Below, piece by piece: positions 363-29,551 of a stretch of DNA of 29,551 nt. This stretch comes from a virus. Its lineage: Duplodnaviria > Caudoviricetes. The stretch lies in the IMG/VR virus record IMGVR_UViG_3300027796_000281, positions 1 to 29,551 of that record, one strand, 5' to 3'. How positions within the stretch are numbered: the stretch's first letter is position 1; each line of letters starts with the position of its first letter. The notes below the pieces were generated by a model, which made no database searches, had not been told where the DNA came from, and was given only the letters and a program-made list of their open reading frames with translations. A program made the translations under genes and the position numbers.

Positions 363-394
363 AAAAAATCCCCCGGGTGTCACGCCGGAGGATT
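363..394 (-). terminator. Rho-independent terminator of the early operon
   Basis: Minus strand AATCCTCCGG-cgtgacac-CCGGGGGATT followed by TTTT, 7 nt after the last early gene stop. Confidence 0.8.
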
Positions 395-401
395 AGTGCG
401 G

Positions 402-1178
402 TCACCGGAAGGAACCGCTCAGCACTTCCCATGCGAGCGCCGCCACCGCCGGAACCTGTCCGTTGCCAAGGGCGCCGATGCGCTCCATCCGATCGGCCAC
501 CCCATCAGGAGTTCGACACAGCAAACCGTCGGCCAGCAGCCGGTCGCGGTCAGCACTTTGCAGACCAGCGAGTTTTTCCTCGCTCCAAACCTGGTGTTGA
601 CGATCGGCTCCTTCCGGCAGCCGGGACACATGTCCTTCGCCATCGTCCGGATGACGCCGCCCCAGTATCCATAGGCGGTCTCGTTTAATGGGGTAGTTGA
701 GGTGTCCAGCGCCCAGCACACACCATTTCGCATCATACCCCATTTCGGCCAGCGAAGATAAGACTTCCTCGAGTCCGCGACCGGTGAGGAGCGGGCTATT
801 TTCCACGAATGCGAACGCCGGTCGTATCTCGCCGACAATGCGCGCCATTTCCCGCCACAATCCGGACTTTTCCCCGGCGATGCCCTTACCAGTGCCGCAC
901 GAGCTGATATCCTGGCAAGGAAAGCCTCCGCTGACGACGAGATCGCCGGCGACGGTCCGCAGCCATCCGATGTATTCCCGGCATTCCGGGTTGTCGATCC
1001 GGAAGCTCCGGACGTCGTCCCAGATCGGGAACATGGGACAGCAGTCGTCCCTCTGTCTCTGGAGGAGAACCCTCCGGCAGTAAGGTTCGATCTCGACGGC
1101 TCCGACCGTTCTAAAACCGAGAAGGTTTTTTCCGAGAATGCCTCCTCCAGCTCCGGCAAACAACTCCAGCTCATACAT
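402..1178 (-). CDS. C5 cytosine DNA methyltransferase, alpha-like chain
   Basis: Motif I ELFAGAGG, IV GGFPCQDIS, VI FVENSP, VIII KRDRLWI, X ALGNGQVP; no motif IX in this frame. Confidence 0.92.
   Translation of the reverse strand: MYELELFAGAGGGILGKNLLGFRTVGAVEIEPYCRRVLLQRQRDDCCPMFPIWDDVRSFRIDNPECREYIGWLRTVAGDLVVSGGFPCQDISSCGTGKGIAGEKSGLWREMARIVGEIRPAFAFVENSPLLTGRGLEEVLSSLAEMGYDAKWCVLGAGHLNYPIKRDRLWILGRRHPDDGEGHVSRLPEGADRQHQVWSEEKLAGLQSADRDRLLADGLLCRTPDGVADRMERIGALGNGQVPAVAALAWEVLSGSFR
419..1174 (-). CDS. Overlapping-frame methyltransferase beta-like chain (251 aa) carrying a motif IX-like segment
   Basis: Open frame nested in the alpha gene; ATG at 1174 overlaps the upstream stop (ATGA) and lies 8 nt from AAGGAG; C-terminal VELLMGWPIGWS. 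Confidence 0.7.
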   Translation of the reverse strand: MSWSCLPELEEAFSEKTFSVLERSEPSRSNLTAGGFSSRDRGTTAVPCSRSGTTSGASGSTTRNAGNTSDGCGPSPAISSSAEAFLARISARAALVRASPGKSPDCGGKWRALSARYDRRSHSWKIARSSPVADSRKSYLRWPKWGMMRNGVCWALDTSTTPLNETAYGYWGGVIRTMAKDMCPGCRKEPIVNTRFGARKNSLVCKVLTATGCWPTVCCVELLMGWPIGWSASAPLATDRFRRWRRSHGKC

Positions 1179-2064
1179 GGCGCTCCTTTCCGGCGATCCG
1201 CCGCATGGCTTCCGGGTTTCGCCAGAGACATTCGGTCCGGCGCTGTTTCTCCTTGACCTTCCCCGCGCCCTGAAGGCCGCTTATGCGCGTTCTCCCGGCG
1301 GCGGAACAGGTGACCTCCACCTCCAGCTTGTCCCAGCCGGCGGCGGCCAGAGGCGCATACAGAGGGCTGTTATAGCCGCTCAGGACCACAGCCCCGTCGT
1401 AGGACAGCAGCGCGCGGATCAGCGCCTCGTGGTCACTGTCCTTGAGTTCATGCTCGTAACCTCCGGCTTTGCGGCTCCCTGCCACATAGGGCGGGTCGCA
1501 GTAGGCCAGCCAGCCGGGACCGGAGAACCGGCGCAGGACATCGCGCCAGTCGCAGCACTCGATCTGGACGCGCTGCATCCGATCGTGCACCCGGGGAAGG
1601 TTGTCAAAGCTGCTTCGCCAGCGTGCGGTGGTCTCCGCCATGCCTCCGGAGCTGGTGTTGACGGCGGTGCCCCAGCTGCCGCCGAAGATGCCCCCGAAAC
1701 TCTGCTGCACAACGAAATACCACCGGGCGGCCTGTTCGATCGGATCGTGGATCGCGGGCCACGTGCGGAGACACTCCTCGTAGAGCTCGCGGCTGTAGGG
1801 CATTTCCCGGACACGGGCCATAAACGGGCCGAAGTATTCGCGGCTGGCGACCACCCGGAAGAAGCTGACCATGCCGCGGTTGACGTCGTTATACACCTCG
1901 ACCTCGGCCGGCGGCTTGGATATCAGGATCGACGCACCGCCGCCGAAGGGCTCCAGATAGCGCTGGTGGGGCGGCAACGCCTCTAAAATCGCGGACTTGA
2001 TCTTGGGTGCGCCCTTGCCTCCGAACCACGGGAAAGGAGCCCGAATCATCTTTTTTGAATCCAT
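1171..2064 (-). CDS. D12-class (Dam-like) N6-adenine DNA methyltransferase
   Basis: PFPWFGGKG, YLEPFGGGASIL, EVYND, YCDPPY, LSGY, RTECLW; ATG at 2064 with GAAAGGA RBS. Confidence 0.93.
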   Translation of the reverse strand: MDSKKMIRAPFPWFGGKGAPKIKSAILEALPPHQRYLEPFGGGASILISKPPAEVEVYNDVNRGMVSFFRVVASREYFGPFMARVREMPYSRELYEECLRTWPAIHDPIEQAARWYFVVQQSFGGIFGGSWGTAVNTSSGGMAETTARWRSSFDNLPRVHDRMQRVQIECCDWRDVLRRFSGPGWLAYCDPPYVAGSRKAGGYEHELKDSDHEALIRALLSYDGAVVLSGYNSPLYAPLAAAGWDKLEVEVTCSAAGRTRISGLQGAGKVKEKQRRTECLWRNPEAMRRIAGKERHV

Positions 2065-10547: not shown

Positions 10548-12131
10548 TGGGACGTCATCGCCGCGCTGGACCAGCGCGCGGAAGCGCTGCTCGGCGTCAA
10601 GTGGGAGATTCTCCCCGGCGGAAGCGGTCCGAACGACAAGGCCGCCGCGGATGCTTTCCGGACGGAACTGGAAGGCTGCGGTTCCTTGAGCGGACTGGAT
10701 ACTTTTTACGATCTGGTACGGAATCTTGAAGGTGCCGTGATCTATCCTTTCGCGGTCTCGGAAATCGTGTGGGAGCCCGGCGGTCTGATCTCCGGTTTCC
10801 AGCACGTCGATCCGTGGCACTTCACCCTGCGCGACAGTTACGAGCCGCTTCTGATCTCGGACGAATTCCCGAACGGGATGCCGCTGCCGGCGAACAAATT
10901 TGTGATCCACCGGACGCTGAAAAACGCCGATCCGGCGCGGTCCGGGCGGATCCGGACGCTGGCATGGCTGCACCTGTTCCAGAACTGGCCGATCAAAGAT
11001 CTATTCAGCTTTGTCGAGCGTTTCGGCATGCCGTTTGTGATGGCCAAGGTCGATAAGCAGACGTGGGACGAGGAACGCGGCGCTGTTCAAAGTATGATCA
11101 AGAGTTTCGGGCCGTCCGGCGGCGGCGTCTTCACCGCGTCGACCGAGGTGGAGCTCCTTCAGGCGGCGAACACCGGCAGCGACAATATCTATCTCAAGAT
11201 TCTGGACTATACACGGGAAGCGATTTACCGTCTGCTGCTGGGTCAGACGGCCAGCAGTTCGGACGGCGGCGGGCTTTCGGGGGATACGGCGCAGTCGAAG
11301 GTCCGGCAGGATATCCTCGAATCCGATGCCCGGGCGATCGAGTCGACGATCCGGGCGCAAATCGCGGCTCCGTGGACCACGTTCAACTTCGGTCCGGCCG
11401 CGGCGGTTCCGAGAATCCATTTTCAAGTGGAGCCTGCGGAAGACATCACCGCGTTCGCGACAATGGTCCAGACGCTCTACAACAGCGGTTTGCAGGCTGA
11501 TCCGGTTCAGATCGGAAAGAAGGTCGGCTTGACGCTGACGGCACGTCCGGAACAATCGCAGATGCCCGGAATGGGGTTTGGATTGCAGACACCACCGGAA
11601 ACAACCGCGCCGGCGGCGGATCCGAAAGCCTTACAGGAAGCGCGCGGCATCGCGATCCGCGCCGGTACGCTGACTCCGACAGCGGAGATTGAGGCGCAGA
11701 CACGCCGGGAACTCGGGTTGCCGGTGATGCCGGAAGAAGTCAAGAAGGCGTGGGAGGCGACCGGAGGAATCCGGCAGCCGATCACGCTGAAACCCGCCGA
11801 AAGCGCGGCGGTGGATGATGCCCTGAAGGTGGACGAAAAAGCGGCCGCCTCCAAGACCGCGCCGGACGCCGCGCCGCTTGCGGCCGACGATCCGAAAAAA
11901 AAAAGTGAGGAACGGGCCGTTGCGGACGCCCTGGTCGAGTGGCTGACGCCGCTTTCGAAAGCGTTGCCGGAGCTGACGGATGAGTCGGAGATGTCCGATG
12001 AGGCCTTTGGAAAGGCGCTGGCGGCCTGCGCGGACGGAAAGAAGCTCGGCGACCTGACACCGCTCATGAAGGCGCAGGAAGGATTGATCTACCGGGATCT
12101 GGCGGAAACCAAGGGAGGAACAGGAAAATGA
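10548..12131 (+). pseudogene. Mu gp29-like portal (DUF935), 5'-truncated
   Basis: In frame upstream of TTG 10686 the sequence reads WDVIAALDQRAEALLGVKWEILP; later FVERFGMPF, LLGQTASS, VRQDILESDA; no start codon before the junction. Confidence 0.85.
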
Positions 12132-13414
12132 CGTTCGACGAGGCCAACGACTGGATCGCACACCGTCAGTCCAAGACGACCGAGCTGACTTCCCGCGAGA
12201 TCTCGAAGACGGTGCCGCCCAAAATTGCGGCGCACTGTTTTTTTTCGGCTCAGGTGGCCAAGGAAAACGTGCTCGGGAAAATCCGGGACGTCTCCGACCG
12301 TTTCAGCCGCGGCGAGATCAGCCAGGCGGATGCGCGGAGCGAACTCCGGAACTGGCTGAAAGCGAACAATCAGGACGACGGAACCGCGAGCGTGAAGAAT
12401 CTGGCCAGCAAGGCGCGTGTCAATCTGATTCTCGAACAGAACAAAAAAATGGCGGTGGCGGTCGGCAGGTATCAGACCGACCGCGATCCGGTGGTCGAGG
12501 CGCGTTTCCCGGCGTGGGAATACCATACCGGCCGCAATCCGCGCGATGCTCATGCGGCGTTGAACGGGAAAATTTATCTCAAGTCGGATCCGATCTGGCA
12601 AAAGATTTATCCCCCGTGGGAATTCGGCTGCAACTGCTGGGTGACCAATACGGACAAAGCGCCGAACGGGACGATCACCGTGGCGGATATCGGGAAGCCG
12701 ACAAGCGGTTACCGGTTCGATCCCTCCGACGCGTTCGAGGATTATAAGGTCGATAGTTTTGAGTTCAAAAAAACGCCGGACTCACCCTTGATTGTCAAGG
12801 CGCGCGGAGAAGCGGAAACCTTGAGGCGGGAACAGCTCAAGATCATGTACAAGGATGTCGACAAAAGACAGCCGGGAATCGTCGAGGAAGCGGATGATTA
12901 CTGGGGTCGGATGGAGCCGGAAGACCGGGAACCCGTGATCCGTTATACCGCGAGCGATCAGGCGAGCCTCAACCGGGCAAGCCGCGGACAGATTGAGATG
13001 ACGAAACCAATCTCGGACGAGATGGACAAGGTATCCACCCTGCTGGAGAAAGCCCCCAAATACACCGGAGGACAGGTTTACCGGGTCATCAATCTGAACA
13101 CGCAAGAGGATCTGAAATCCCTTGTAAACGACCTGGAAAATGACAGATGGGCTCTGAATGGGTTCAACTCGACCTCCACATCGATGGACAGCGCGAAACG
13201 CTACCTGAACCCGGAAAAAACAGGGGTCGTCTTCCATGTGGTCAAGAGCCGGAACGGAGCTTTTATCGGTCAATATTCCTACATGAACGCGGACAAGGAG
13301 GTGCTTTTTGACAGAAAATGCAAATTCCGGGCTTTACAATCATGGGAGCCGGATTATATTAAACGCGACGGATGGCCGGACGGGCTGATGCACATAGCGA
13401 TTATGGAGGTCTGA
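12128..13414 (+). CDS. MuF head morphogenesis protein with C-terminal ADP-ribosyltransferase (VIP2-like) domain
   Basis: MuF core PRDAHAALNG..DPIWQKIYPPWEFGCNC; ART motifs YT..LNRASR, VYR, FNSTST, DKEVLF. Confidence 0.88.
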   Translation: MTFDEANDWIAHRQSKTTELTSREISKTVPPKIAAHCFFSAQVAKENVLGKIRDVSDRFSRGEISQADARSELRNWLKANNQDDGTASVKNLASKARVNLILEQNKKMAVAVGRYQTDRDPVVEARFPAWEYHTGRNPRDAHAALNGKIYLKSDPIWQKIYPPWEFGCNCWVTNTDKAPNGTITVADIGKPTSGYRFDPSDAFEDYKVDSFEFKKTPDSPLIVKARGEAETLRREQLKIMYKDVDKRQPGIVEEADDYWGRMEPEDREPVIRYTASDQASLNRASRGQIEMTKPISDEMDKVSTLLEKAPKYTGGQVYRVINLNTQEDLKSLVNDLENDRWALNGFNSTSTSMDSAKRYLNPEKTGVVFHVVKSRNGAFIGQYSYMNADKEVLFDRKCKFRALQSWEPDYIKRDGWPDGLMHIAIMEV

Positions 13415-17628: not shown

Positions 17629-18039
17629 ATGCGCGCCCCCCATGAAATAACCGGCGATCTCAAGACGCTGCTGGATCAGTCGTTTCAGACGGTTCTGATT
17701 ACGACCGCGCAGATTTCGGAGCAGTTTCTTTCCGAGGTGCGCGCGATCAGTTCGGCGGCGCTGCCCGCGGTGGTCATCGTCTACGAGGGCTACTCGAACA
17801 GCGGCGGGGTCAGCGAGACACAGCTGGCTCTGGTGCTGATCGACGAGTTCCGGGCTGACGACCAGGACAAGGCAGTATCGGTACTGACCGCGCTGTCGAC
17901 GCTCTCCGCGCTGTTCCCGGCAACGGGGCTCGCTCTCAGCGGTGTCATGTATTTTCCATCCGGCGCGCAGGCGGCCAGCGCGGACAAGGCTTACGCGTGC
18001 TTTGCGCTCAGCCTGACCGCCAAACAGGGATCAACGTAA
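17629..18039 (+). CDS. Putative tail terminator (gp37-like)
   Basis: LPAVVIVYEG; size and synteny. Confidence 0.6.
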   Translation: MRAPHEITGDLKTLLDQSFQTVLITTAQISEQFLSEVRAISSAALPAVVIVYEGYSNSGGVSETQLALVLIDEFRADDQDKAVSVLTALSTLSALFPATGLALSGVMYFPSGAQAASADKAYACFALSLTAKQGST

Positions 18040-18059
18040 CACAAAAAGAAAGGCTTATT

Positions 18060-18392
18060 ATGGCAACGGTTTTTGGACTTGTTACCTACAAGGGCGCGAT
18101 CGCCGCGCTCGAACTCCAGGATGTCACCTACGGAGAAAGCGGATCCACCAGTGAGCCGCTTAAGGAGGACGGCACCGTGGAACAGATCGACACCTACGGC
18201 GACAAGGTGACGTTGCAGGCAAACGGAAACGTCAAGACGGGTGCAAACATGGCCGCGCTAACTCGTGGCGCCACTCTGACGGTCGACTCGATCGCCTACA
18301 AGATCACGGACGTCCAGATCAAGGAAAGCGTCACCGGCGCGAAAACCTGTTCGATTTCCGGCTCCGCCCCGAAGCCGGTTCCCGCGGGTTAA
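18060..18392 (+). CDS. Putative small tail tube protein
   Basis: Beta-rich 110 aa, GAAAGG RBS; lies between the terminator and chaperone genes. Confidence 0.5.
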   Translation: MATVFGLVTYKGAIAALELQDVTYGESGSTSEPLKEDGTVEQIDTYGDKVTLQANGNVKTGANMAALTRGATLTVDSIAYKITDVQIKESVTGAKTCSISGSAPKPVPAG

Positions 18393-18395
18393 CCC

Positions 18396-19118
18396 ATGAC
18401 CGAACAGGAAGGACTGCGGCTGGCGACGAAGGAATTTTCCGCCGTCCTGGCCGCCGATCCGGAGCTGAAGCGTCTGGAAGGACTCAAATACGACCGGAAA
18501 AGCGAATTTGCGCCGCTTCTGGACGCGATCGGGCTCCGGGGCGGCTGGAAGATCGGGTCGCTGCCCGTGAAGCCTTTGACGGCCGCAAAATGGGGGTTCC
18601 TCTGGGGCATCGGGAATCCGCTGGTAGCCGGGGATCTTCCGGAAGGAACGGCCGCAACCGCCGCCGACGCGGATATTTTTCTTTTCGTGCTGGCGGCGCC
18701 GGACCTCCGGAAGCTGGAGATTTCCTTCTCCGACCTTCCGGCGGTGGCGTCCGGATACGCGGAAGCCACCGGGCTTTCCCCGGAGGATGTGGTTCGGGAA
18801 ATCCATCAGGTCAAGCAGTCCGCCTTCCACGCCTTCGAGATGCTGCCGGAAACGTCCGGGCGCGGGGAACCGGTGCATTACGACGCCGACTGGCTGACGC
18901 TGCTGTCCGGCATCGCCGCGCGGGAGACGCTGACGCCGGTCGAGGAGGTCATGCACGAGATGCCTCTTTCGACGGTTCTGTATCACTACATCCAGTATCA
19001 GCGGCGCGAAGACCTCCGCGGCGGGAATATCAAGCGCCGTCCGAACAGCGATGTTCAAAAATTGATCTCGAAGCGGATCGATGAACTTGCGGAGGCGTTT
19101 TTGAAAGTTTGTAAGTGA
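18396..19118 (+). CDS. Putative tail assembly chaperone
   Basis: Directly precedes the tape measure gene; C-terminal EEVMHEMPLS resembles pre-TMP chaperone tails. Confidence 0.55.
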   Translation: MTEQEGLRLATKEFSAVLAADPELKRLEGLKYDRKSEFAPLLDAIGLRGGWKIGSLPVKPLTAAKWGFLWGIGNPLVAGDLPEGTAATAADADIFLFVLAAPDLRKLEISFSDLPAVASGYAEATGLSPEDVVREIHQVKQSAFHAFEMLPETSGRGEPVHYDADWLTLLSGIAARETLTPVEEVMHEMPLSTVLYHYIQYQRREDLRGGNIKRRPNSDVQKLISKRIDELAEAFLKVCK

Positions 19119-19136
19119 AGAATTTGTAAGTTTGTA
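19106..19136. repeat. 8-nt-period repeat element, copy 4
   Basis: AGTTTGTA AGTGAAG AATTTGTA AGTTTGTA before the tape measure RBS. Confidence 0.75.
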
Positions 19137-19151
19137 AAAAGGAAAAACCTC

Positions 19152-21422
19152 ATGCCGACTATCGTAAAAATCACGTGCGACGGTGAAAGCTATACACAAG
19201 AACTGAATCGCATCGTGTCTTTTACGCGCGAGAGCCGGCGTCAAATGGAAACGGCAGTCTCCGGAGAGATCAAGTCGACCGTGAAGCAGGAGGTCAAGGG
19301 CGCGGAGGAGATCCAGAAGGCAAAGCAGGAGATCGACTCAATTCCTGCTGATAAAAAAGTGGTCGTGACCACCGAATTCAGCGGCGTTTCCAAGACCTCG
19401 GAAGACCAGCCGGCCCAGACCGGCAACGTGCAGGATCAGGAGGTGACCGTCACGGCCAAAGTCGAGGGGATGAATGATGTAAAAAGCCTCGCAACTGCGC
19501 TGGATGAGCTTCCCGACACGGTCTCCGTGGCTGTCAATGTAACCACGCCGTCCGCGCCTCAAACACCAACACCGCAACCCGCGCAGCAGCCGAATCAGCC
19601 TGCCCCGCAGCAACAGCATGGCAACGTGCAGCAGATATCCAAGGCGGGGGCGGCAGTCGGAGCGCTCAGCAATGCTCTTGGCACAGCAAATCCGCAGCTG
19701 GCCCTTTTTGGCCAGTTGCTGTCTACCATCGTGACTGGTCCAGTTGCTGTTTTTACCGCCGCAATAGGCATTGCCGTCGCAACTATCGTGACCATCTGGG
19801 ACAAGCTCATTATGTCAGCGGACGAATACGCGGCCAAGCTGGCCAGGCTCAGCTCGGACGCGGAAAAACATGCTCAATCGGTGCAAAAGGAGCATGATGC
19901 CGCGCGCGGCTACATGTCGCGTCTCCAGGCGCTGGCCGCGCAGGAGGTCTTGAGCAATGAATCAAAACTCGAAGCGGCAAAGCTGATCGAGGTAGTGAAC
20001 TCGAAGTATGGCAATCTGGGTGTGACGCTGGCGGATGTCATCAACAAAACCGGCGCACTGGATGCCGCGCAGGCGCGTCTGAATCAGCGGCTGCTCGAGG
20101 AGCAGAAGGTGGAACTGGCGCGGCAGGCCGCGGCGGCGAGGAAACAGGCCGAGCAGGAAGGAAAAATTGCGATCTCCACCAACTACGGGCTTGGAAAAAT
20201 CGTTGGATATGGAAGTTACCAGGCGTCCCAACAGATGTTTTCCGAAGATGTCGCAAAAAGACCGGTTGAGAAACGAATCGATTTTGCCACAAAAATGCGC
20301 GATGCCATGGGGACAAGCGAGACTGACGCCGCCGCCTGGCAGAAAGTAATCGATACGCTCGAGAAAGAGCGTGAACTCACCCGTCAGATTGGCGACATCG
20401 ATCGCGGCCTTGCTGCCGCGAAGCTGGCGGCCGACGCTGAAATCAACGATCGGAAAAACCGTGAACTCGCCCTGAAAACAAAAATACAGGAACAGTCCAA
20501 GTATGAGGTCGATTACGCGAAGCTGACCGCCGCCGGAGAGTATGACAAGGCCGCCGCCCTCAAGCAGCAGCATGAACTCAAGCAGCAGAACCTGACCCTT
20601 ACCGAGGCGGAGAAACAGGCGGTCCTCGACAATCAGAAAGCACTGCAGGCGATCGAGACCGGCAAACGGATTTCCGAGGGCGCGGACGAACTTGAGATCC
20701 AGAAAGCGCTCCTGGCTGGCGACTTTGAGCGTGCCAACGCCCTGAAGCTGCAGCTGGAGTATAAACGCCAGGGGAAGGCCCTCAGCAAGGAAGACCAGGA
20801 TGCTCTGCTTAAGCAGCAGAAGGAATCCCAGAAACTCGATACCGACAAGGCCATCTCCGAGAATGAGACGGAGCTCGAGATCCAGAAAGCGCTCCTGGCG
20901 GGCGAATATGAAAAGGCCGACGCTCTCAAGCGCCAGCTGGAGTATAAGCGTCAGGGCAAGACGCTGGACGCCGATCAGGAAAAGGCCCTCAAGAAGCAGC
21001 AGGAAGCGCAGAACGCGATGAATCTCCAGAAGTCCATGAAGGATCAGGGGAAATCGGTGCTTTACGGCGCGATGGAACAGGCCGGCATGGGACGCGCGGC
21101 CGCCTATGCGAAGGCGCTCGACGACGCCGAAAAGACCAAGGGCGGAAAGCTGACCGGCGATGAAGCCAGCCGGACGAAACAGCTGACCGATCTGAGCTTG
21201 CAGTTGAGCGCGTCGGTTCCGGTGCAACTCGGCGATCTCGGGATCAAGACGAACGACCTGACGGCGCGCGGCGGCTTTTCCTCCGGCGCGGTCATGCCGG
21301 ACAAGGACGAGGTCAACCGTGCGATCCGCACCAATACCCAGTCTATGGCGGAGGCCCTGAAGGGAATCCAGACCTGGCTGGATAAACTGGACAACAGCAT
21401 AAAGGAAGGGAACAGGAACTGA
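19152..21422 (+). CDS. Tail tape measure protein
   Basis: 756 aa, Ala/Gln/Lys-rich helical, one hydrophobic stretch, 61-aa repeats ELEIQKALLAG..LEYKRQGK. Confidence 0.8.
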   Translation: MPTIVKITCDGESYTQELNRIVSFTRESRRQMETAVSGEIKSTVKQEVKGAEEIQKAKQEIDSIPADKKVVVTTEFSGVSKTSEDQPAQTGNVQDQEVTVTAKVEGMNDVKSLATALDELPDTVSVAVNVTTPSAPQTPTPQPAQQPNQPAPQQQHGNVQQISKAGAAVGALSNALGTANPQLALFGQLLSTIVTGPVAVFTAAIGIAVATIVTIWDKLIMSADEYAAKLARLSSDAEKHAQSVQKEHDAARGYMSRLQALAAQEVLSNESKLEAAKLIEVVNSKYGNLGVTLADVINKTGALDAAQARLNQRLLEEQKVELARQAAAARKQAEQEGKIAISTNYGLGKIVGYGSYQASQQMFSEDVAKRPVEKRIDFATKMRDAMGTSETDAAAWQKVIDTLEKERELTRQIGDIDRGLAAAKLAADAEINDRKNRELALKTKIQEQSKYEVDYAKLTAAGEYDKAAALKQQHELKQQNLTLTEAEKQAVLDNQKALQAIETGKRISEGADELEIQKALLAGDFERANALKLQLEYKRQGKALSKEDQDALLKQQKESQKLDTDKAISENETELEIQKALLAGEYEKADALKRQLEYKRQGKTLDADQEKALKKQQEAQNAMNLQKSMKDQGKSVLYGAMEQAGMGRAAAYAKALDDAEKTKGGKLTGDEASRTKQLTDLSLQLSASVPVQLGDLGIKTNDLTARGGFSSGAVMPDKDEVNRAIRTNTQSMAEALKGIQTWLDKLDNSIKEGNRN

Positions 21423-22213
21423 TGCAAACCAGTGTTCACCAGGGACGTGTTTTCGAGCGCAACGAGAACGGGTCCAGCACAACGGAGACCGTGACCGGAA
21501 CGCAGGCGGAAATGCAGGCGTATCTGGAGGCGCTGGTCTTTGACAGCACGGCCGGCGGACGGCATGTCACCAGCGGCAAGGTGTCGCAGGTGGCCGGGAC
21601 GGAATGGAAATGCGAAGTGGTTTACGCAGACGAATCCAACGGCGGGACCGTGACGCCGCCGTCTTCCGCCTATGGAAAGAAATCCGCGACACTGTCCACC
21701 GGCTGCATGCGCATGCCGTTGGAAAAGCGCGAAAACTATCTGGCAAATTGGAATCACTATCTTGCAAAAGGTTTGCTGGAGAGCGAGACGGACGATGGAC
21801 TAACGCCCGATTTCTGGTTTGACGCCTCGACGGTGATCCTCAGCAAGCAGGACTCGCAGCGTTGGAAATGGGTCAAGTCCATGGCGGACATTCCCCCGGA
21901 CGCCGATAAGCTGGGGCGGACCTGGAAGATCATCAAGGACCCCACAAAACCGGGCGTGGAAGGTTACGATCTGGCGACTTATCAGGTGACGGAGTCGGTC
22001 AAGCAGCCGAACCCGACGCGGTGCGGATATTATGTGGCCAACCGCCTCAATAAAATTATCAGCCCCAACGAAACTTTCGGGCTCACGGTCGGCAACTGGA
22101 AGTGCGACTCGGCGTCGATCCAGTGGGATGGCAAGCACTGGAAGGCGACGCTCACCTACACGCTCTCTGGCGACGCCGAAGGCTGGGACCTTGATCTTTA
22201 TGAGCTTGGATAA
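21422..22213 (+). CDS. Putative tail-tip protein
   Basis: First gene after the tape measure gene, TGATG coupling. Confidence 0.55.
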   Translation: MQTSVHQGRVFERNENGSSTTETVTGTQAEMQAYLEALVFDSTAGGRHVTSGKVSQVAGTEWKCEVVYADESNGGTVTPPSSAYGKKSATLSTGCMRMPLEKRENYLANWNHYLAKGLLESETDDGLTPDFWFDASTVILSKQDSQRWKWVKSMADIPPDADKLGRTWKIIKDPTKPGVEGYDLATYQVTESVKQPNPTRCGYYVANRLNKIISPNETFGLTVGNWKCDSASIQWDGKHWKATLTYTLSGDAEGWDLDLYELG

Positions 22214-22224
22214 GGAGACATGAC

Positions 22225-22830
22225 ATGGACGTTCCATCACCGCTTCTTCGCGGAGACCAGCGCAAGGAATCAGTATTTCTTAAGGTCAACGAACTATGTC
22301 AGTATCTCCGGGCGGAGCGCCTGAACGCGGACGGCCGCACAATTGCGCTGAACCGGACCGGCTCCGGCGTCATGATTTCGGCTTTGCGCCAGGCGGCGGC
22401 TGGGGTGCAGTCGTCCTCCGGCGCGGTGCTGGACGGCTTTTTCAAAGTGTCGCTGGTCAAGTCCGCGGAGGGCGTGACTATGCTTTCCGTGCTTGACGGA
22501 TACGACAAGACGGCGCCGCTCGCCGGATATGCTTATTACAATGGAAAAAAAGTGGAGTGTCCGACGGCGGAAGGCATCGCGGTCGCGGCCGGGTATCTCT
22601 GTCTTGGCATCAGCAAAGACGCGGAAACTTATACAGTCGGCTATACGATCGAGGCTTCGATCCCCGACATGCCGACGCTGGAGAGCATCACAGACGACAA
22701 CACTGCAAAATATCCGATCGCCGAGATCCTCGGTTCCGCCGCGGACGGTTGGAGTTGCCGGCAGCTCCAGCTGTCCGGGCTTCCGGCTCTCTGGTGCTTC
22801 GGCCCGTGCGACACGGAAACAACAACATGA
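22225..22830 (+). CDS. Putative tail protein
   Basis: AAGGAG RBS; synteny. Confidence 0.55.
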   Translation: MDVPSPLLRGDQRKESVFLKVNELCQYLRAERLNADGRTIALNRTGSGVMISALRQAAAGVQSSSGAVLDGFFKVSLVKSAEGVTMLSVLDGYDKTAPLAGYAYYNGKKVECPTAEGIAVAAGYLCLGISKDAETYTVGYTIEASIPDMPTLESITDDNTAKYPIAEILGSAADGWSCRQLQLSGLPALWCFGPCDTETTT

Positions 22831-22839
22831 GGAGAAAAA

Positions 22840-25134
22840 ATGCTGTTTGTCAACTCAAAGGGCCAGCCAATTATCAGATCCGGACAGGTCTATCCGCGTG
22901 ATTGCGGAAAGTGTCCGTGCGGGGACTGCGGCGAATGCACAACCTCGTGCTATTACTCGGTGCTGCATCACGTCGACGCGGACTATCCGGGTGTGATCGC
23001 GGCCGCGGCGGGCAATGTCTATCATTGTCAATGCACGTATGAGGGTTCGACCTTCGATCTCTATCTGGATGGCACCAGCAAGCCGCTGTCCCAGTTTCGC
23101 GACGGAAGAGTCTGGTATGATCTGGACGATGTGAATCCGAACTATGACGCCGCCGCGAAAACCATTTACGATTCTTATTGTCTCGCCCATCCGGATGACG
23201 CCGCCGGACAGCTTGACGCCTACCAAATATATTTGGAGACGAAAGACAAATACAATCACTACTACAGCGCCGCGGAACTGGAAGGGTTGACCGGACGCTG
23301 GCGCTCGGATACGCCGCTTTCCGCATCCTCGACCTTTACGAACCGCAAGCACGCGCTCGGATTGTTGGGAACCGAACGGCCGCAGTATTACGTAAGCGCG
23401 ACGATGGAAGTAATTTGTAAAAACAAGCCGGAAGAACCTCTTTTCGATACGAACGGAATACGATACCAAAAAGGACTTGAAGGCTGGATCGTCTCGACCG
23501 ACGATTGCGATTTCGGGCCTCCCCGTAAAGCGAAACTGACGCTCGCGTATTTCAATATTTTCAAGTTCACGGCAACGGTGGCAAAGTGGAACGCGACGGC
23601 ACAGCGGTATGAGGAAGTCGACACCTTTGTCCACTGGTCGCAGAACATCACGGATAAGCCCGTGGCGCTCTTCGGCGCGGAGAATGTCACCGTGCTCGGC
23701 GGCAGTCCTTTCCCGCTCGACGCGGCGGGCGTCGCGGCGAATAATGTCCCGGACTGGATGGACCCGGACTGGCACTGGAGTGACCACAGGGATCCGTCCG
23801 TTGCGATCCAGCCGCCCGACTTTTACCAGATCTACAATTTCTATGACGTCAACGGAAACAAGCAATACAATTACTTCCGGCACGCGGGCGACTATGCCTA
23901 TAACGAAAATGAGCGCACAATCGCGCTGACGGATTTCGACAATAACACCGCTGGCGTCTGTTACTTCGGCAACACCACGTGCGAGAATTCCGCCTGCAAC
24001 ACCGATCTGCTGTTTACAGACGTTCAGGTAATTGTTACAAGCGGAACCCAGACCGATCCGTCCGTGGACGCGACCGGCGACATCGACATCGTTCGCCAGA
24101 TCGTTTCCGGCACCGGCAGCGACGGCAGCACGATCGGCGGCGACGTGACCGGAGGCGACGTGACCGGAGGCGACGACGGATCGACTACGACCACGATCAA
24201 CGTCGACAATGGAACAAACACGACGGTCATAACCATCGAGACAACTCCCAACAGCGACGGATCAAGCACGACTACCATCACCATCGACAACGGATTCGAC
24301 GCGCCAACGGTCATAACCATCGAGACAACTCCGCCAGACGATAATGGTTCCAGCAGCTCATCCGGATCGGCCACCACCGGCGATGGAGACAGCAGCTCGG
24401 TGGGCGGTTCGACCACGACCAACGACGACGGCTCGACCACCACCGTCATTGTCATCGACGGAGGCGACGACGCGGATACCACCATCACGATCGATACGGA
24501 TCCGAACGACAACGGCGACGGCGGAAGCACGTCGGACGTCACGGTCGACGACGGGGATGGAGAGGAAGAGGAATATCACATCGTCATCACTCCCGTCGAT
24601 CCGTGGACCAAGGAAAAAGTGCCGCAGAAGGATCCGTGCCGGGTCGGAAACCAGCACGTCCACTACAGGATCGACTATACGGTCAATGTAGCGAGCGATT
24701 TCCCGGACTATGAAGGATATACCGAGACCCGCTGGACGGAAGGTATTGGCATTATGTATGGTTCCGTACTGGACCCGGATCATACTGCTTTTTATCGTGT
24801 ATCATTTAATGGGGAACCCGAGGTTATTGAAGAAAGTTCCGTTGCTAAATGTGAGGGCAGCAAATCGTCGGACTGCACGAAGTGGCTGATGGATACAATC
24901 GGAGTGGGTTTTGCTGTCTCGGGAGGCGGCGGATATCGCTTCAATATCGACCCGCAAACCAATCAAATTGTGACTTTTTCGGTGCCGAAAAAAGGGCTGT
25001 ATTTTTATGGCACGATCGAGTATGCGGCGACAGGATCCAGAACGGAGGAGTTTGCCGGACAGTATTATACCTATACAAAAAGCGTTCAGTTTGTATGCAC
25101 CGTCCGGAAAGAAACCGACATGAGCTTTGAATAA
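22840..25134 (+). CDS. Large putative tail protein with Cys-rich N-terminus and acidic T/D/G/S repeat block
   Basis: DCGKCPCGDCGECTTSC; low-complexity block at ~24000-24600. Confidence 0.7.
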   Translation: MLFVNSKGQPIIRSGQVYPRDCGKCPCGDCGECTTSCYYSVLHHVDADYPGVIAAAAGNVYHCQCTYEGSTFDLYLDGTSKPLSQFRDGRVWYDLDDVNPNYDAAAKTIYDSYCLAHPDDAAGQLDAYQIYLETKDKYNHYYSAAELEGLTGRWRSDTPLSASSTFTNRKHALGLLGTERPQYYVSATMEVICKNKPEEPLFDTNGIRYQKGLEGWIVSTDDCDFGPPRKAKLTLAYFNIFKFTATVAKWNATAQRYEEVDTFVHWSQNITDKPVALFGAENVTVLGGSPFPLDAAGVAANNVPDWMDPDWHWSDHRDPSVAIQPPDFYQIYNFYDVNGNKQYNYFRHAGDYAYNENERTIALTDFDNNTAGVCYFGNTTCENSACNTDLLFTDVQVIVTSGTQTDPSVDATGDIDIVRQIVSGTGSDGSTIGGDVTGGDVTGGDDGSTTTTINVDNGTNTTVITIETTPNSDGSSTTTITIDNGFDAPTVITIETTPPDDNGSSSSSGSATTGDGDSSSVGGSTTTNDDGSTTTVIVIDGGDDADTTITIDTDPNDNGDGGSTSDVTVDDGDGEEEEYHIVITPVDPWTKEKVPQKDPCRVGNQHVHYRIDYTVNVASDFPDYEGYTETRWTEGIGIMYGSVLDPDHTAFYRVSFNGEPEVIEESSVAKCEGSKSSDCTKWLMDTIGVGFAVSGGGGYRFNIDPQTNQIVTFSVPKKGLYFYGTIEYAATGSRTEEFAGQYYTYTKSVQFVCTVRKETDMSFE

Positions 25135-25145
25135 AGGAGTTTGGT

Positions 25146-25520
25146 ATGGCCTGTCATTGTCACGGAAAAGAGGGGATCGAGGCGGTCGAGCCGAAGCCCC
25201 TCGACCAGTGCACTGTCTGCGCGAAGAAACACATCGACAAGGCGCATGCGCTCTGGTCCGAGTTTTTATATACCCAGGCGAACCGCCGGCAGATCCACGG
25301 ACAGCTCCGGCTGGCGGTGGACCATCTGATGTATGACCACCGCCTGACCGCGATCCTCGCGCGTGACGTCGCGCAGAAGATCGAGCTCAACCGGGACGCC
25401 GAACTCAAGGACGCGTGGGAGCGTCTCGCCGAGGCGGTCGACGCGGATTTCTACGCCGACCATCCCGACGCCCTCGAACGCCTGAACCGGCTGCAAGCCA
25501 GCAAGGAGACCCTTTCATGA
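25146..25520 (+). CDS. Cys/His-motif small protein
   Basis: MACHCH, CTVCAKKH; AAGGAG RBS. Confidence 0.7.
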   Translation: MACHCHGKEGIEAVEPKPLDQCTVCAKKHIDKAHALWSEFLYTQANRRQIHGQLRLAVDHLMYDHRLTAILARDVAQKIELNRDAELKDAWERLAEAVDADFYADHPDALERLNRLQASKETLS

Positions 25521-26602
25521 TTTATATAGACATCGGCCAACGGGCCTTTTCGGACGCCTCCGGAATGAATATTCTTCCGGAGCCGGACCACACGCGTCTT
25601 TTTCATGGGACCGTGGAGACATTGCGTTTCAAGCTGCTGAGCGGCGGGAGCGCGCTGGTCCTGAATGCGTCCGACACCTTTGTCCTGAAGATCGACAGCG
25701 ACTTCGACGACACGACTCCCCTGATGGCGTACTCCACAGTCTTCACGATCGTGGACGCCGCCGCCGGAATCATCGATGTGACGGTCAACCTGACTGCCGA
25801 CGCGTTCGGCGCCAAGGTCGGGACGGCGGTCTTCATCAAGTCGTATCTGCGTCTGGAACGGTATCTTGCCGGCGTGATTACTCCGTCCGTGCTGGTGCAG
25901 GACACGATCTTCACTTTCAATTCCATCGATTCGATCGCCGCGCTTCCGCAGCCGGACGATCCCGAGTATTACAGCGCCGCGCAGGTGCAAGCCCTGCTCG
26001 CCGCGCTTTTCGACTTGGGCGACCCTTACGATTTCACGACGACCGCCGAGACCGGCGAGACCATGACCTTTGCCGCGGCGGCTCTCGGCGTGGACGCGGA
26101 GTCCTGCGACTTCGAAGTCGTTCAGGTGCTCGAGACCGAAAAGAAGACGGTCACCGGCGATGCCGCGATCTCCCGCAAATGGACGTCCGCGGGGTATGTG
26201 GTGAGTTATGCCGGGGGCTGGCCCGCTGGGACGTGGCAACTCCGCGCCGGAAAGGTCAAGGGCGACGACGGCCGCGACGGCATGGTCTACGACCGTGAAA
26301 CCATGAGCGGCGTCACGATCACAGCGTCCGCGACGCCGAAGACGCATTACTACACGGCCCACAGCGGCGATGTCCTGGTAACCAACTGGACAGCGGTCAG
26401 CGGCAAGGACGCCACCATCTGGCTCAAGCTGACCATGCCGTCTACACCTGTGACAATAACGCTCCCTGCAGACATTACCGCGTGGCGCGACGATTTCGGT
26501 AACGCCGCTTCCGCGCCCGACATGAGCACGGCGGGGACTTACTGGATCTTCATTCACAAGGACGCCGCACAGATATGGGCGACGGGAAAGAAGGTGTCAT
26601 GA
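25517..26602 (+). CDS. Putative baseplate/fibre adaptor protein (BppU-like N-terminus)
   Basis: ATGA coupling; LRFKL..IVDAAAGIIDVTV; KGDDGRDG linker. Confidence 0.55.
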   Translation: MIYIDIGQRAFSDASGMNILPEPDHTRLFHGTVETLRFKLLSGGSALVLNASDTFVLKIDSDFDDTTPLMAYSTVFTIVDAAAGIIDVTVNLTADAFGAKVGTAVFIKSYLRLERYLAGVITPSVLVQDTIFTFNSIDSIAALPQPDDPEYYSAAQVQALLAALFDLGDPYDFTTTAETGETMTFAAAALGVDAESCDFEVVQVLETEKKTVTGDAAISRKWTSAGYVVSYAGGWPAGTWQLRAGKVKGDDGRDGMVYDRETMSGVTITASATPKTHYYTAHSGDVLVTNWTAVSGKDATIWLKLTMPSTPVTITLPADITAWRDDFGNAASAPDMSTAGTYWIFIHKDAAQIWATGKKVS

Positions 26603-27330
26603 TGCTTTTTCCGACTCCGTTTTCTCCGATCCCGATTCAAACGCTCGGCGACGTCTCCGCGATCATGATCGAGATCACCGCAGCGCACATTTCAGGCGGG
26701 ACGGCGTATCATACTTTTTTCATCGTTGCAACTGCCGGGTGCAAGGTCTACTGGGGAGACGGCGCAAGCAGCACATTGTCCGCCGGGACAAACACCTGCA
26801 CCCACACTTACGCGGGCGCGGGTTGTTATCTGATCCAGATCAAAGGGGCGCACACAAGGCTTTACCACGGAACCGGAAGCACAGCCGCAAAAGTCATCGA
26901 GGCGGTCAAACTTTACAGTGGAGTGACCTCCTGCGCGAGCTCTTTTAGAGATTGTTTAAACAGTAAGTTTAAGATGGGGAATGGGCTTCGGTTTCATAAC
27001 GGAATTACGGATTGCCTATATGCTTTCTTGAACAGTTCGATAAAAAGAATTGCTCCCGGCTTTACGCTTCCTGCCACCTGCTCAAATTTTTATGGAATGT
27101 TTCAGAATGATACAGAGCTTGAGTCTGACATTTCGAACATTATCCCGGAGTGGCCGCCCGGAAGGACCATCACACTTTCATATGCGTTTTTTTATGCACA
27201 AAAAGTGACCGGGACGCTTCCCGCGTCAAAGCTGTGGGGCAGGACGGACATCACATGGATACCTACACAGGCCTTCACGAGCGCAACCCATCTGACAAAC
27301 TACGCCTCCATCCCGGCCGGATGGAAATAA
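26599..27330 (+). CDS. PKD-like plus BspA/DUF285-like repeat protein
   Basis: VYWGDG..THTYAGAGCYLIQIKG; repeats TSCASSF, TDCLYAF, NFYGMF, TLSYAF; ends LTNYASIPAGWK. Confidence 0.65.
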   Translation: MMLFPTPFSPIPIQTLGDVSAIMIEITAAHISGGTAYHTFFIVATAGCKVYWGDGASSTLSAGTNTCTHTYAGAGCYLIQIKGAHTRLYHGTGSTAAKVIEAVKLYSGVTSCASSFRDCLNSKFKMGNGLRFHNGITDCLYAFLNSSIKRIAPGFTLPATCSNFYGMFQNDTELESDISNIIPEWPPGRTITLSYAFFYAQKVTGTLPASKLWGRTDITWIPTQAFTSATHLTNYASIPAGWK

Positions 27331-27342
27331 GGAGGAAACATT

Positions 27343-27730
27343 ATGGCATGGAAAAAAAATAAATGAAAATGGCACGCTGAGCGATCCGCCGCACAACAAC
27401 GGCCACCGGATCAATGTGCATCTTGATCCGGAGTGGCTGGCGGCCAATGGATATGTCGACATGACAGACGAAGAGATCGCCCAATACTCGACGACCACGA
27501 CGATGGTACAGACCGTCTTTACAAAGCTCCAGATACGCCGGGCGATGCGTGCGCTGGAGATGGAGCCGGTTCTGGACGCCATCCTTGCCGGCAACGCCAC
27601 CTTCGCGGCTGACTGGGCCGACGCCCAGGAGATCGATCTCGCCGATCCGGTCTTTGCTTCCGCGATTGCCGCCGCGGGGATCACCGCCGAACAGATCGAT
27701 GCCGTCAAAACCAAAATTCTGGAAGGATAA
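27343..27730 (+). pseudogene. Tail-fibre-associated small protein interrupted by a frameshift in an A8 run
   Basis: GGAGG RBS and ATG 27343; A8 at 27352-27359 gives MAWKKNK*, whereas A7 gives MAWKKINENGTLSDPP.. in frame with ORF 27416-27730. Confidence 0.7.
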
Positions 27731-27733
27731 GAA

Positions 27734-29551
27734 ATGAGAAAACTGTTTGCGATTTTTCTTTTGCTCGCGCTTTGCATGGTCGTGCTGACCGGAGAAAAAC
27801 GAATCGTAGGAGCGCGCGTCAATAATCAGCTTATGCTTCTCCGGATCGACCTCGCGAACTACGCGATGGACTGCTCCGTCGACGGGACAAGCTGGAATGC
27901 TGTCAGACTTGACTGGTCGAATGTGCTGAATGCGTCCGGCATGGCCATGTTGACCGGTGCGGCCTTTACGGGCAATGTCTCCGTTGCCGGTACGTTTACC
28001 GCTTCCGGAACGCTTGTGGTGCCAAACAACGCTTTTTCGCTTTCCAAGCTCGCACAGGTTTCGGCCGGATCGGTCCTCGGCAATGTCAGCGGATCGACCG
28101 GAAATGTGTCTGTTCTGACTGCTTCTGAGCTTAAAACTCTGATTGGAAACGCGACCGCTTCTGTTGTCGGACTGATGTCCGCAGCAGACAAGAGCAAGTT
28201 GGACGGACTGTCGACGGTAGCCACATCGGGCAGCTATTCCGACTTGAGCGGAAAACCGACTGTCGCGACGAATTCCGTTGCCGGATTCATGTCCGGCACG
28301 GACAAGACAAAGTTGGACGGGCTCGTTTCCGGCTACCGAGGATACTATGCGACCGAGTCCGCGCTGAAAGCGGCCCATGCCACCGGAACGAACGGAGATT
28401 ATGCACTGATAGGCGAAACGGGCACCGTCTGGGCGTGGATCGGGTCCGCGTGGACCAATACGTCCATCACTTCGCTTTCGTGGTCTGCCGTCACCGGCAA
28501 GCCGACTTTTGCAACCGTGGCCACTTCCGGAAGCTATGGCGACCTGTCCGGCAAACCAGCCATTCCTTCCAGGGCTGTACAATATTATACCGGGACGGTC
28601 GCGGATGATGGAACCATTACTCTGGATAACAGTGTGGCTGTGTCCGCTCTCGCCATCGGCGATCTGGTTCGGATCACGAGCGCCAATGCCACCCTCGGAA
28701 TTGCCATCGGCGATCTTTACCGGAAGAATGCCGACAGCGCAACCGTGACGGTGCCGGATCCCTCGAAAGTCAACGTTCTCGGAAATTATTCCGGATCCGG
28801 CACATATATTCATTGGAACCCATACACGCTGCAAAGCGGCACCGGATCAAGCCGAATCTGGATGTCGAGCAACGGCACATACTGGGTCGGTTATAGACAA
28901 ATTGGAGGATATAATGGATGGCAGATATACTATATGTACATGGTATACGCAAGCGCCATTGACGATGGGACGCATGATCCGTGGGATTCGTCGCTCACGT
29001 GGGTTACGGATACAGGAGCAAGCGGCAGCACGAACATTCATGTGGGAGAAGGCACCAGCGATCAGACCGTCACAAACAATATTGTCCAATTCAAAAAGGT
29101 GATGGATGCAACGCTGACCGCTTTGACCGTTCCTTATCTGGATGCTTCAAAGAATCTGACCTCCAGTACCGTAACACCGACGGAGCTTGGATATCTTTCC
29201 GGTGTTACGTCCGCCGTTCAGACACAGATGAACGGACTCGAAGAGTTGACAAAAACAGTTTCAGTCAACCCTCAGACCGGCACAAGTTATACACTTGTCC
29301 TTGCGGACCGGGGCAAGCTGGTCACGATTTCCAATGCGTCTGCAAACACCTTGACGATCCCGCTGAATTCGAGCCTGGCATATCCTACAGGAACCTGGAT
29401 CGATGTCGTCAATATCGGCGCCGGGGCTTGCACGGTGACGGCGATAAGCGGCGTTACGCTGAACGGAACGGACGGCGGGACAAAGGCCATCTCCCAATGG
29501 TCTGGAACGAGACTTTACAAAATCGCCTCAGACACATGGGTCGCAAGGTAA
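27734..29551 (+). CDS. Tail-fibre-like protein with N-terminal signal-peptide-like sequence
   Basis: Fibre repeats GLMSAADKSKLDG, VATSGSYSDLSGKP, TELGYLSGVTSAVQTQ, QTGTSYTLVLADRGK; N-terminus MRKLFAIFLLLALCMVVLTG. Confidence 0.8.
   Translation: MRKLFAIFLLLALCMVVLTGEKRIVGARVNNQLMLLRIDLANYAMDCSVDGTSWNAVRLDWSNVLNASGMAMLTGAAFTGNVSVAGTFTASGTLVVPNNAFSLSKLAQVSAGSVLGNVSGSTGNVSVLTASELKTLIGNATASVVGLMSAADKSKLDGLSTVATSGSYSDLSGKPTVATNSVAGFMSGTDKTKLDGLVSGYRGYYATESALKAAHATGTNGDYALIGETGTVWAWIGSAWTNTSITSLSWSAVTGKPTFATVATSGSYGDLSGKPAIPSRAVQYYTGTVADDGTITLDNSVAVSALAIGDLVRITSANATLGIAIGDLYRKNADSATVTVPDPSKVNVLGNYSGSGTYIHWNPYTLQSGTGSSRIWMSSNGTYWVGYRQIGGYNGWQIYYMYMVYASAIDDGTHDPWDSSLTWVTDTGASGSTNIHVGEGTSDQTVTNNIVQFKKVMDATLTALTVPYLDASKNLTSSTVTPTELGYLSGVTSAVQTQMNGLEELTKTVSVNPQTGTSYTLVLADRGKLVTISNASANTLTIPLNSSLAYPTGTWIDVVNIGAGACTVTAISGVTLNGTDGGTKAISQWSGTRLYKIASDTWVAR

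Follow-up and report, generated by a model that had tools for sequence, protein, structure and literature searches.

Two overlapping reading frames of a Mu-like prophage gene probably encode the two chains of one C5 methyltransferase

The locus and its genomic setting

The DNA analysed here (the window) is a provirus record of 29,551 nucleotides. On its minus strand, a 777-base gene is open in two overlapping frames over nearly its full length. The first frame (402..1178, read from 1178 to 402) encodes a C5-methyltransferase catalytic chain of 258 aa, designated alpha, and the second (419..1174, read from 1174 to 419), which is the +1 frame relative to alpha, encodes a chain of 251 aa, designated beta. 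A preliminary description had reported the 251 open codons of the second frame with the strand unstated, and the translation agrees with it. The shared start region (1171..1188, minus strand) contains a single AAGGAG, 4 nt from the alpha ATG (1178) and 8 nt from the beta ATG (1174). The latter overlaps the TGA stop codon (1173-1171) of the upstream gene for a D12-class adenine methyltransferase (1171..2064, minus strand, read from 2064; PF02086), which is coupled to the pair by this stop codon. The same arrangement, with the upstream gene termed Dam-like, had been described before and is visible in the sequence. The beta frame is open further upstream, into the D12 gene, where an ATG at 1231 would give a product of 270 aa; the start at 1174 is therefore based on conservation and not on the edge of the open reading frame.

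Genes for a Mu-like transposase, a transposition ATPase, Gam and GemA are located upstream on the same strand, and the methyltransferase pair terminates this string of early-operon genes of the Mu-like prophage. A D12 methyltransferase was adjacent in 11 of the 20 loci checked. A terminator-like hairpin with a T run (367..394, minus strand) lies 8 nt past the alpha stop; two such hairpins were found in the window vs 2.4 expected in shuffled sequences, and the element is informative by its position only. An identical contig extends past the window edge into a host-type GntR regulator gene. The gene pair is thus followed by a terminator-like hairpin and then the GntR gene, and no restriction-enzyme or nuclease family was recognized among 92 neighbouring ORFs of 20 loci, many of which had no Pfam match, in agreement with the orphan status proposed earlier. 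Of the named relatives, the closest comes from a Victivallaceae genome (81% identity), and in the tree the window falls together with Lentisphaerota sequences, which suggests that the prophage host is probably a member of Lentisphaerota.

Several other features of the window were recorded. Positions 1-130 are probably host sequence, and a sigma-70-like site at 65-38 (minus strand) points to the GntR gene at the window edge. Two identical 35-nt direct repeats (247-281 and 314-348, 67 nt apart) are located between the terminator and the host gene; they are possibly transposase-binding sites at the prophage end. The plus-strand gene at 12128-13414 encodes a MuF minor head protein that ends in an ADP-ribosyltransferase domain at its C-terminus (PF04233, PF03496). 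In the late region (17629-29551), most long plus-strand ORFs had no Pfam or PHROG match, the exceptions being a weak tape-measure match (19152-21422) and a weak RraB match (22225-22830). Over the whole window, CTAG and GTAC are strongly depleted (0.22 and 0.30 of expected, respectively).

Motifs and models of the two chains

The motifs of alpha are named here as is established for the C5-methyltransferase family. Motif I (LFAGAGG) occupies residues 6-12, motif IV (GGFPCQDIS, with the catalytic Cys88) residues 84-92, motif VI (FVENS) residues 124-128, motif VIII (IKRDRLW) residues 164-173 and motif X (ALGNGQVP) residues 236-243. The chain can be divided into a catalytic domain with motifs I-VIII (1-175), a linker of low conservation (176-235), and a last part made up of motif X and the terminal helix (236-254). 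Residues P87, C88, E126, N127, R166 and R168 were invariant across 48 alpha sequences. No motif IX-like pattern was found after motif VIII in the alpha frame of any of 60 homologues, which, together with the motifs located, upholds the earlier account of alpha as a chain with motifs I, IV, VI, VIII and X and without motif IX. In a local hhalign test, the alpha variable region gave no match to a motif IX-X profile (P=0.37).

The Pfam family PF00145 matched only residues 4-179 of alpha (profile positions 4-166 of 324), and the match to PHROG 363 spans nearly all of the chain. In the AlphaFold2 model, the block means of pLDDT were mostly 80-98 over residues 1-180 and below 50 in most of 180-238; the catalytic domain and the terminal helix were modelled with confidence, and no confident small domain was obtained. 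Foldseek aligned this model with M.HaeIII and M.HhaI at E-values of about 1e-13, with an rmsd of 2.4-2.9 Å over about 180 columns. Judged by its motifs and its predicted catalytic fold, alpha is a C5-methyltransferase chain. It does not qualify as a single-chain enzyme of this type, since motif IX and, in all likelihood, the recognition domain are not in the same chain.

Beta had no match in Pfam or NCBIfam, and PF00145 was matched by none of 48 beta members. The chain did match PHROG 1008 (annotated as 'DNA methyltransferase') and, at its C-terminus, the unnamed PHROG 35493 and 26627; phrog_1008 was found in 46 of the 48 members, and phrog_35493 and 26627 in 47. The PHROG library holds the alpha and beta families as separate entries and has no record of two frames in one gene. 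On the basis of frame selection and the PHROG matches, beta consists of an unconstrained, stop-free leader (about residues 1-110), followed by a conserved C-terminal part. The latter contains a likely target-recognition region (about residues 171-214; 535..664, minus strand), delimited by selection on the beta frame, and a motif IX-like segment (residues 215-231, with E221 and LMGWP; 482..532, minus strand), which was placed by its register with motif IX and overlaps the DNA immediately before alpha motif X. The second frame had been described as ending in an LMGWP-type segment. The segment is present, as VELLMGWPIGWS (beta residues 220-231), but 20 residues remain C-terminal of it.

When beta is aligned with 23 single-chain enzymes, its residues 215-231 fall in register with their motif IX, although the match is weak (P=0.006, hhalign probability 6%) and so is the test, in which even the true motif X of alpha scores only P=0.05. 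Only this local C-terminal test was used, the whole-length beta profile having given a probability of 0.7% against single-chain enzymes. The beta profile had only chance-level matches to PDB sequences and Pfam, with no C5 methyltransferase among them. Folded alone, beta yielded a low-confidence model (mean pLDDT 45, pTM 0.20) with no meaningful fold match and no match at E<=0.001 among viral structures. In the ESM Atlas, the top clusters for beta residues 135-251 carried PF00145 in 55-59% of their members; this is a lead only, because the score (0.89) is below the tool threshold and such scores can also arise from an alternative frame that overlies a real gene.

Selection and variation in the two frames

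The openness of the second frame was analysed in 151 loci (51 viral, 80 metagenome and 19 genome loci, and the window). Four loci cut at the 5' end, four without a motif I pattern and seven without an in-frame motif VIII (some of them frameshifted) were dropped, and removal of 65 near-copies from the 136 loci with an intact motif I-VIII core left 71 non-redundant loci. The +1 frame was stop-free over motifs I-VIII in 68 of these 71, the three exceptions being the most distant sequences; thus, in the test of stop avoidance suggested by the preliminary description, the second frame proved to be open ahead of the LMGWP segment. Over the core of the 71 loci, synonymous recoding predicted 345 stops in the +1 frame and 5 were observed. 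The +2 frame, which was never open, contained 508 vs 495 expected; the loci are related by descent, and such counts are not independent trials and overstate independence.

For the alpha core of the window (164 codons), 4.8 stops were expected in the +1 frame and none of 1000 synonymous recodings was stop-free. From a control set of 34 loci of single-chain C5 methyltransferases, 11 could not be parsed; none of the 23 used was stop-free in +1 over the same span (mean of 7.6 stops). Seven other genes of the window had 6-19 stops each in this frame. At alpha codon 2, all 52 loci with Asn or Tyr use AAT or TAT, creating the beta ATG, compared with 173 of 411 Asn/Tyr codons ending in T elsewhere in the cores. 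ATG or GTG is present at +4 in 57 of the 71 loci and absent in 14. Ten variants identified by eye in near-identical pieces introduced no beta stops (seven were silent in alpha and two in beta, numbers that are too small to carry weight), and four DNA runs revealed no indels. Of 557 single changes that are silent in alpha, 36 would place a stop in beta. As far as the sequences can tell, the open second frame is real, and it is maintained by selection and is not a product of chance.

Variation in each frame was measured in 16 close relatives that align almost gap-free. Alpha codons 1-110 vary most at the alpha third position, with identities of 0.76 in alpha, 0.48 in beta and 0.45 in the third frame, so that over this part the conservation of beta does not exceed that of the third frame. 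In alpha codons 176-215, the most variable position is the one that beta uses as its wobble position (identity of 0.46 in beta, 0.30 in alpha and 0.29 in the third frame), and both frames are constrained in codons 216-253. These patterns of variation place a switch of selection to the beta frame between motifs VIII and X, which in turn makes it likely that beta holds the target-recognition region in addition to motif IX. The term target recognition is applied to beta on the grounds of position, selection and family behaviour, as the TP repeat of the window beta is divergent and not a clear one. Where motif X is in alpha (60 loci), up to 233 codons separate it from motif VIII. TP-type repeats (1-5 in relatives) were found there in beta at 38 loci and in alpha at 3, and loci with longer VIII-X regions tend to have more of them (Spearman 0.62).

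The same data bear on whether alpha, with both chains being made, might methylate alone, perhaps with relaxed specificity, beta having an accessory, regulatory or stabilizing role. We consider this improbable, given that motif IX is missing from alpha at all of 60 loci and that the DNA of the variable region is less conserved when read in the alpha frame than when read in the beta frame. Alpha residues 196-225 do retain some identity in the close clade (0.37-0.53), and the homology of beta to canonical small domains is weak. The two-chain enzyme M.EcoHK31I can be cited on both sides: the available parts of the publications place its recognition domain in alpha (PMC2836561, PMC3404938), but one of them describes its activity as abolished by removing all beta starts (PMC2836561).

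The preliminary description had further proposed that gene callers would drop the second chain. Only alpha is listed in all four annotated two-frame records examined, but elsewhere beta products are called in large numbers: the beta profile matched 33,213 cluster representatives at E<=0.001 (6,106 at 1e-30), which means that gene callers often do call the beta frame. In 4 of the 71 loci, at no fewer than three separate places in the tree, motif X lies behind motif IX in the beta frame and alpha is short or without X. Repeated movement of motif X into the beta frame is sensible only if beta is translated.

Some variant layouts were noted by inspection. In L030, L031, L033 and L035-L038, alpha ends at about 167 aa, past motif VIII, and motifs IX and X are in beta; by eye, the IX/X overlap segment of these loci looks duplicated and unfolded into one frame. 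A third-frame ORF with an HNH-endonuclease-like pattern (recognized by eye) is located just past motif IX in L019 (2310-2717), L032 (2526-2933) and L025 (1226-1588), where beta is open across this ORF and reaches motif X, and alpha has no motif X. Frameshift-broken copies were found in L039, L044, L046, L076 and L123. In L046 (1501-2600), alpha and beta exchange frames at a G run near codon 89, by either an assembly slip or a phase-variable switch. Proteins in which alpha and beta are joined occur in either order, alpha-N/beta-C (P0022, P0069, P0117) and the reverse (P0137, P0144), and are likely the result of indels or assembly chimeras.

Joined proteins would be the regular product if one chain were made by ribosomal frameshifting, with alpha read over motifs I-VIII, the ribosome slipping by +1 into beta to read the recognition region and motif IX, and then slipping back for motif X. 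The pieces do lie in this canonical order in the DNA, and the three alpha-N/beta-C hybrids could be taken as examples. However, these hybrids have no motif X and comprise only 1-9 member sequences each, and the reverse hybrids fit indels or chimeras. Frameshifting also leaves unexplained why beta is stop-free over motifs I-VIII (68/71), why the +4 ATG is kept (52/52) and why alpha has no stop in a VIII-X region that can reach 233 codons, and we regard it as very improbable.

Distant members differ in their 5' part. Stops appear in the first 20-60 codons of the +1 frame in L047, L048, L150, gp70 of mycobacteriophage Aubs (L152) and a Bacillus plasmid gene (L156), which implies an internal beta start in these sequences. 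A motif IX-like segment was noticed in the +1 frame of L152 (1501-2259), L156 (1201-1965), L047 and L048; L152 and L156 are each annotated as a single gene. An internal start could also be the working one in a heterodimer of the window type, with the +4 start being secondary. Beta of the window has Met147 and Met148, the latter invariant in the close clade, and the beta chain of M.EcoHK31I works from downstream methionines according to the accessible part of its description (PMC2836561). Such a start predicts no avoidance of stops in beta 7-146, yet no stop occurs there in 68 of 71 loci and the ATG at +4 has been conserved, so that we hold an internal start of the window beta to be highly improbable. 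That the second frame is an untranslated shadow of alpha codon and amino-acid use is scarcely credible: beta 1-110 is conserved like the third frame (0.48 vs 0.45) and its fold prediction is poor, but many +1 stops arise in synonymous recodings, single-chain controls and other window genes, and past motif VIII it is the beta frame that is under selection.

The two chains as one enzyme and its known counterparts

The comparison of sequences argues strongly for a dual-coded gene with both frames under selection, and we consider it probable that the two proteins assemble into one C5 methyltransferase, which would shield the Mu-like prophage from host restriction. In the mechanism that we propose, ribosomes would load at AAGGAG, or restart after the D12 stop, and begin at either of the two ATGs, 4 nt apart; the shared start region would link the amounts of alpha and beta. 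Alpha would fold the SAM-binding catalytic domain, in which Cys88, Glu126 and Arg166/168 are intact, loop out residues 180-235 and supply the motif X helix. The first 110 or so residues of beta would be a leader that needs only to stay stop-free, and its C-terminal 85 residues would form a small domain comprising the target-recognition segment and motif IX. Located at the end of the early operon beside the D12 adenine methylase, the pair would methylate cytosine in a short target sequence, and by analogy its likely role, together with the adenine methylase, is the protection of phage DNA from host restriction.

A broader proposal, to which we give about an even chance, is that the gene belongs to a very large phage family with its recognition module in an overprinted frame and with a subunit ratio set by two starts that share one ribosome-binding site. 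Specificity would shift in this family by gain or loss of beta repeats, alpha absorbing the same DNA as an inert loop, while motif X would have moved between frames several times and HNH genes would have been inserted in the third frame. If this is true, the published assignment of the recognition domain to alpha of M.EcoHK31I may need revisiting, and the two-frame phage genes represent modular methyltransferases that nature has provided.

It is rare for two frames of the same strand to overlap by about 750 bases and both to encode parts of one enzyme, and annotation keeps one frame. Cloning of family members from annotated ORFs succeeds by accident. Codon optimization of alpha would destroy beta unnoticed, and the enzyme would wrongly be scored as 'inactive'; a specificity prediction that considers only alpha would leave out the recognition region. 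In this family, start choice between two ATGs 4 nt apart can be studied in a natural setting, and natural split methyltransferases are on offer for targeted methylation, for which, according to the available part of PMC2836561, M.EcoHK31I has already been used. The principle is already known, and the window gene is one ordinary member of the family. We found no paper on the two-frame phage family, although subscription journals, REBASE notes or supplements could hold one. Published prophage methyltransferases of Paracoccus and Sinorhizobium are other enzymes (about 700 aa, or m4C), with no nested frame mentioned in the accessible portions of the sources.

With the single-chain enzymes M.HhaI and M.HaeIII (PF00145), alpha of the window shares the catalytic fold and the catalytic residues. 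In those enzymes, unlike in the window gene, the recognition domain and motif IX are in the same chain and the +1 frame is full of stops. The locus also differs from a Type II restriction-modification system, in that no cognate endonuclease was seen beside the methyltransferase (20 loci, 92 ORFs). The subunits of M.AquI are encoded by separate genes and not by nested frames. This enzyme (CYCGRG) is described, in the part of PMC3404938 available, as a two-polypeptide C5 methyltransferase with the distal variable region and motif IX in its small chain. The window gene resembles it in having a motif IX-like segment in the second chain, and L025, L030, L032 and L033, with X also in beta, follow the AquI division. 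The difference is that motif X of the window is in alpha, motifs IX and X being together in the small chain in only 4 of 71 relatives.

EcoHK31I belongs to a restriction-modification system, and the beta chain of M.EcoHK31I is reportedly 176 aa long, within a gene for 309 aa. As described in the accessible parts of two papers, this E. coli enzyme (YGGCCR) has an alpha chain with motifs I-VIII as well as X, plus a beta chain that bears motif IX and is encoded within the alpha gene in a different frame (PMC2836561, PMC3404938), and it needs both chains in vivo (PMC2836561). M.EcoHK31I was not identified among the plasmid matches listed (the best 40 of 88 and the best 60 of 593). The likeness to it drawn in the preliminary description holds for the layout, within the published text available (PMC2836561, PMC3404938): alpha of the window has motifs I-VIII together with X, and the second chain, kept by selection, lies wholly inside the alpha gene in another frame. 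In the window gene, too, motif IX is probably in the second chain; the alpha side of this division is clear, and on the beta side the match is in register but weak (P=0.006). In contrast, the window beta has its start 4 nt behind that of alpha, not internally, and extends over nearly the entire gene; the recognition region is apparently in beta, while both papers, in the text available, place that of M.EcoHK31I in alpha; and the window gene is a prophage orphan. Likened by layout and published description, the window gene is best called a variant of the M.EcoHK31I kind rather than a member of its family.
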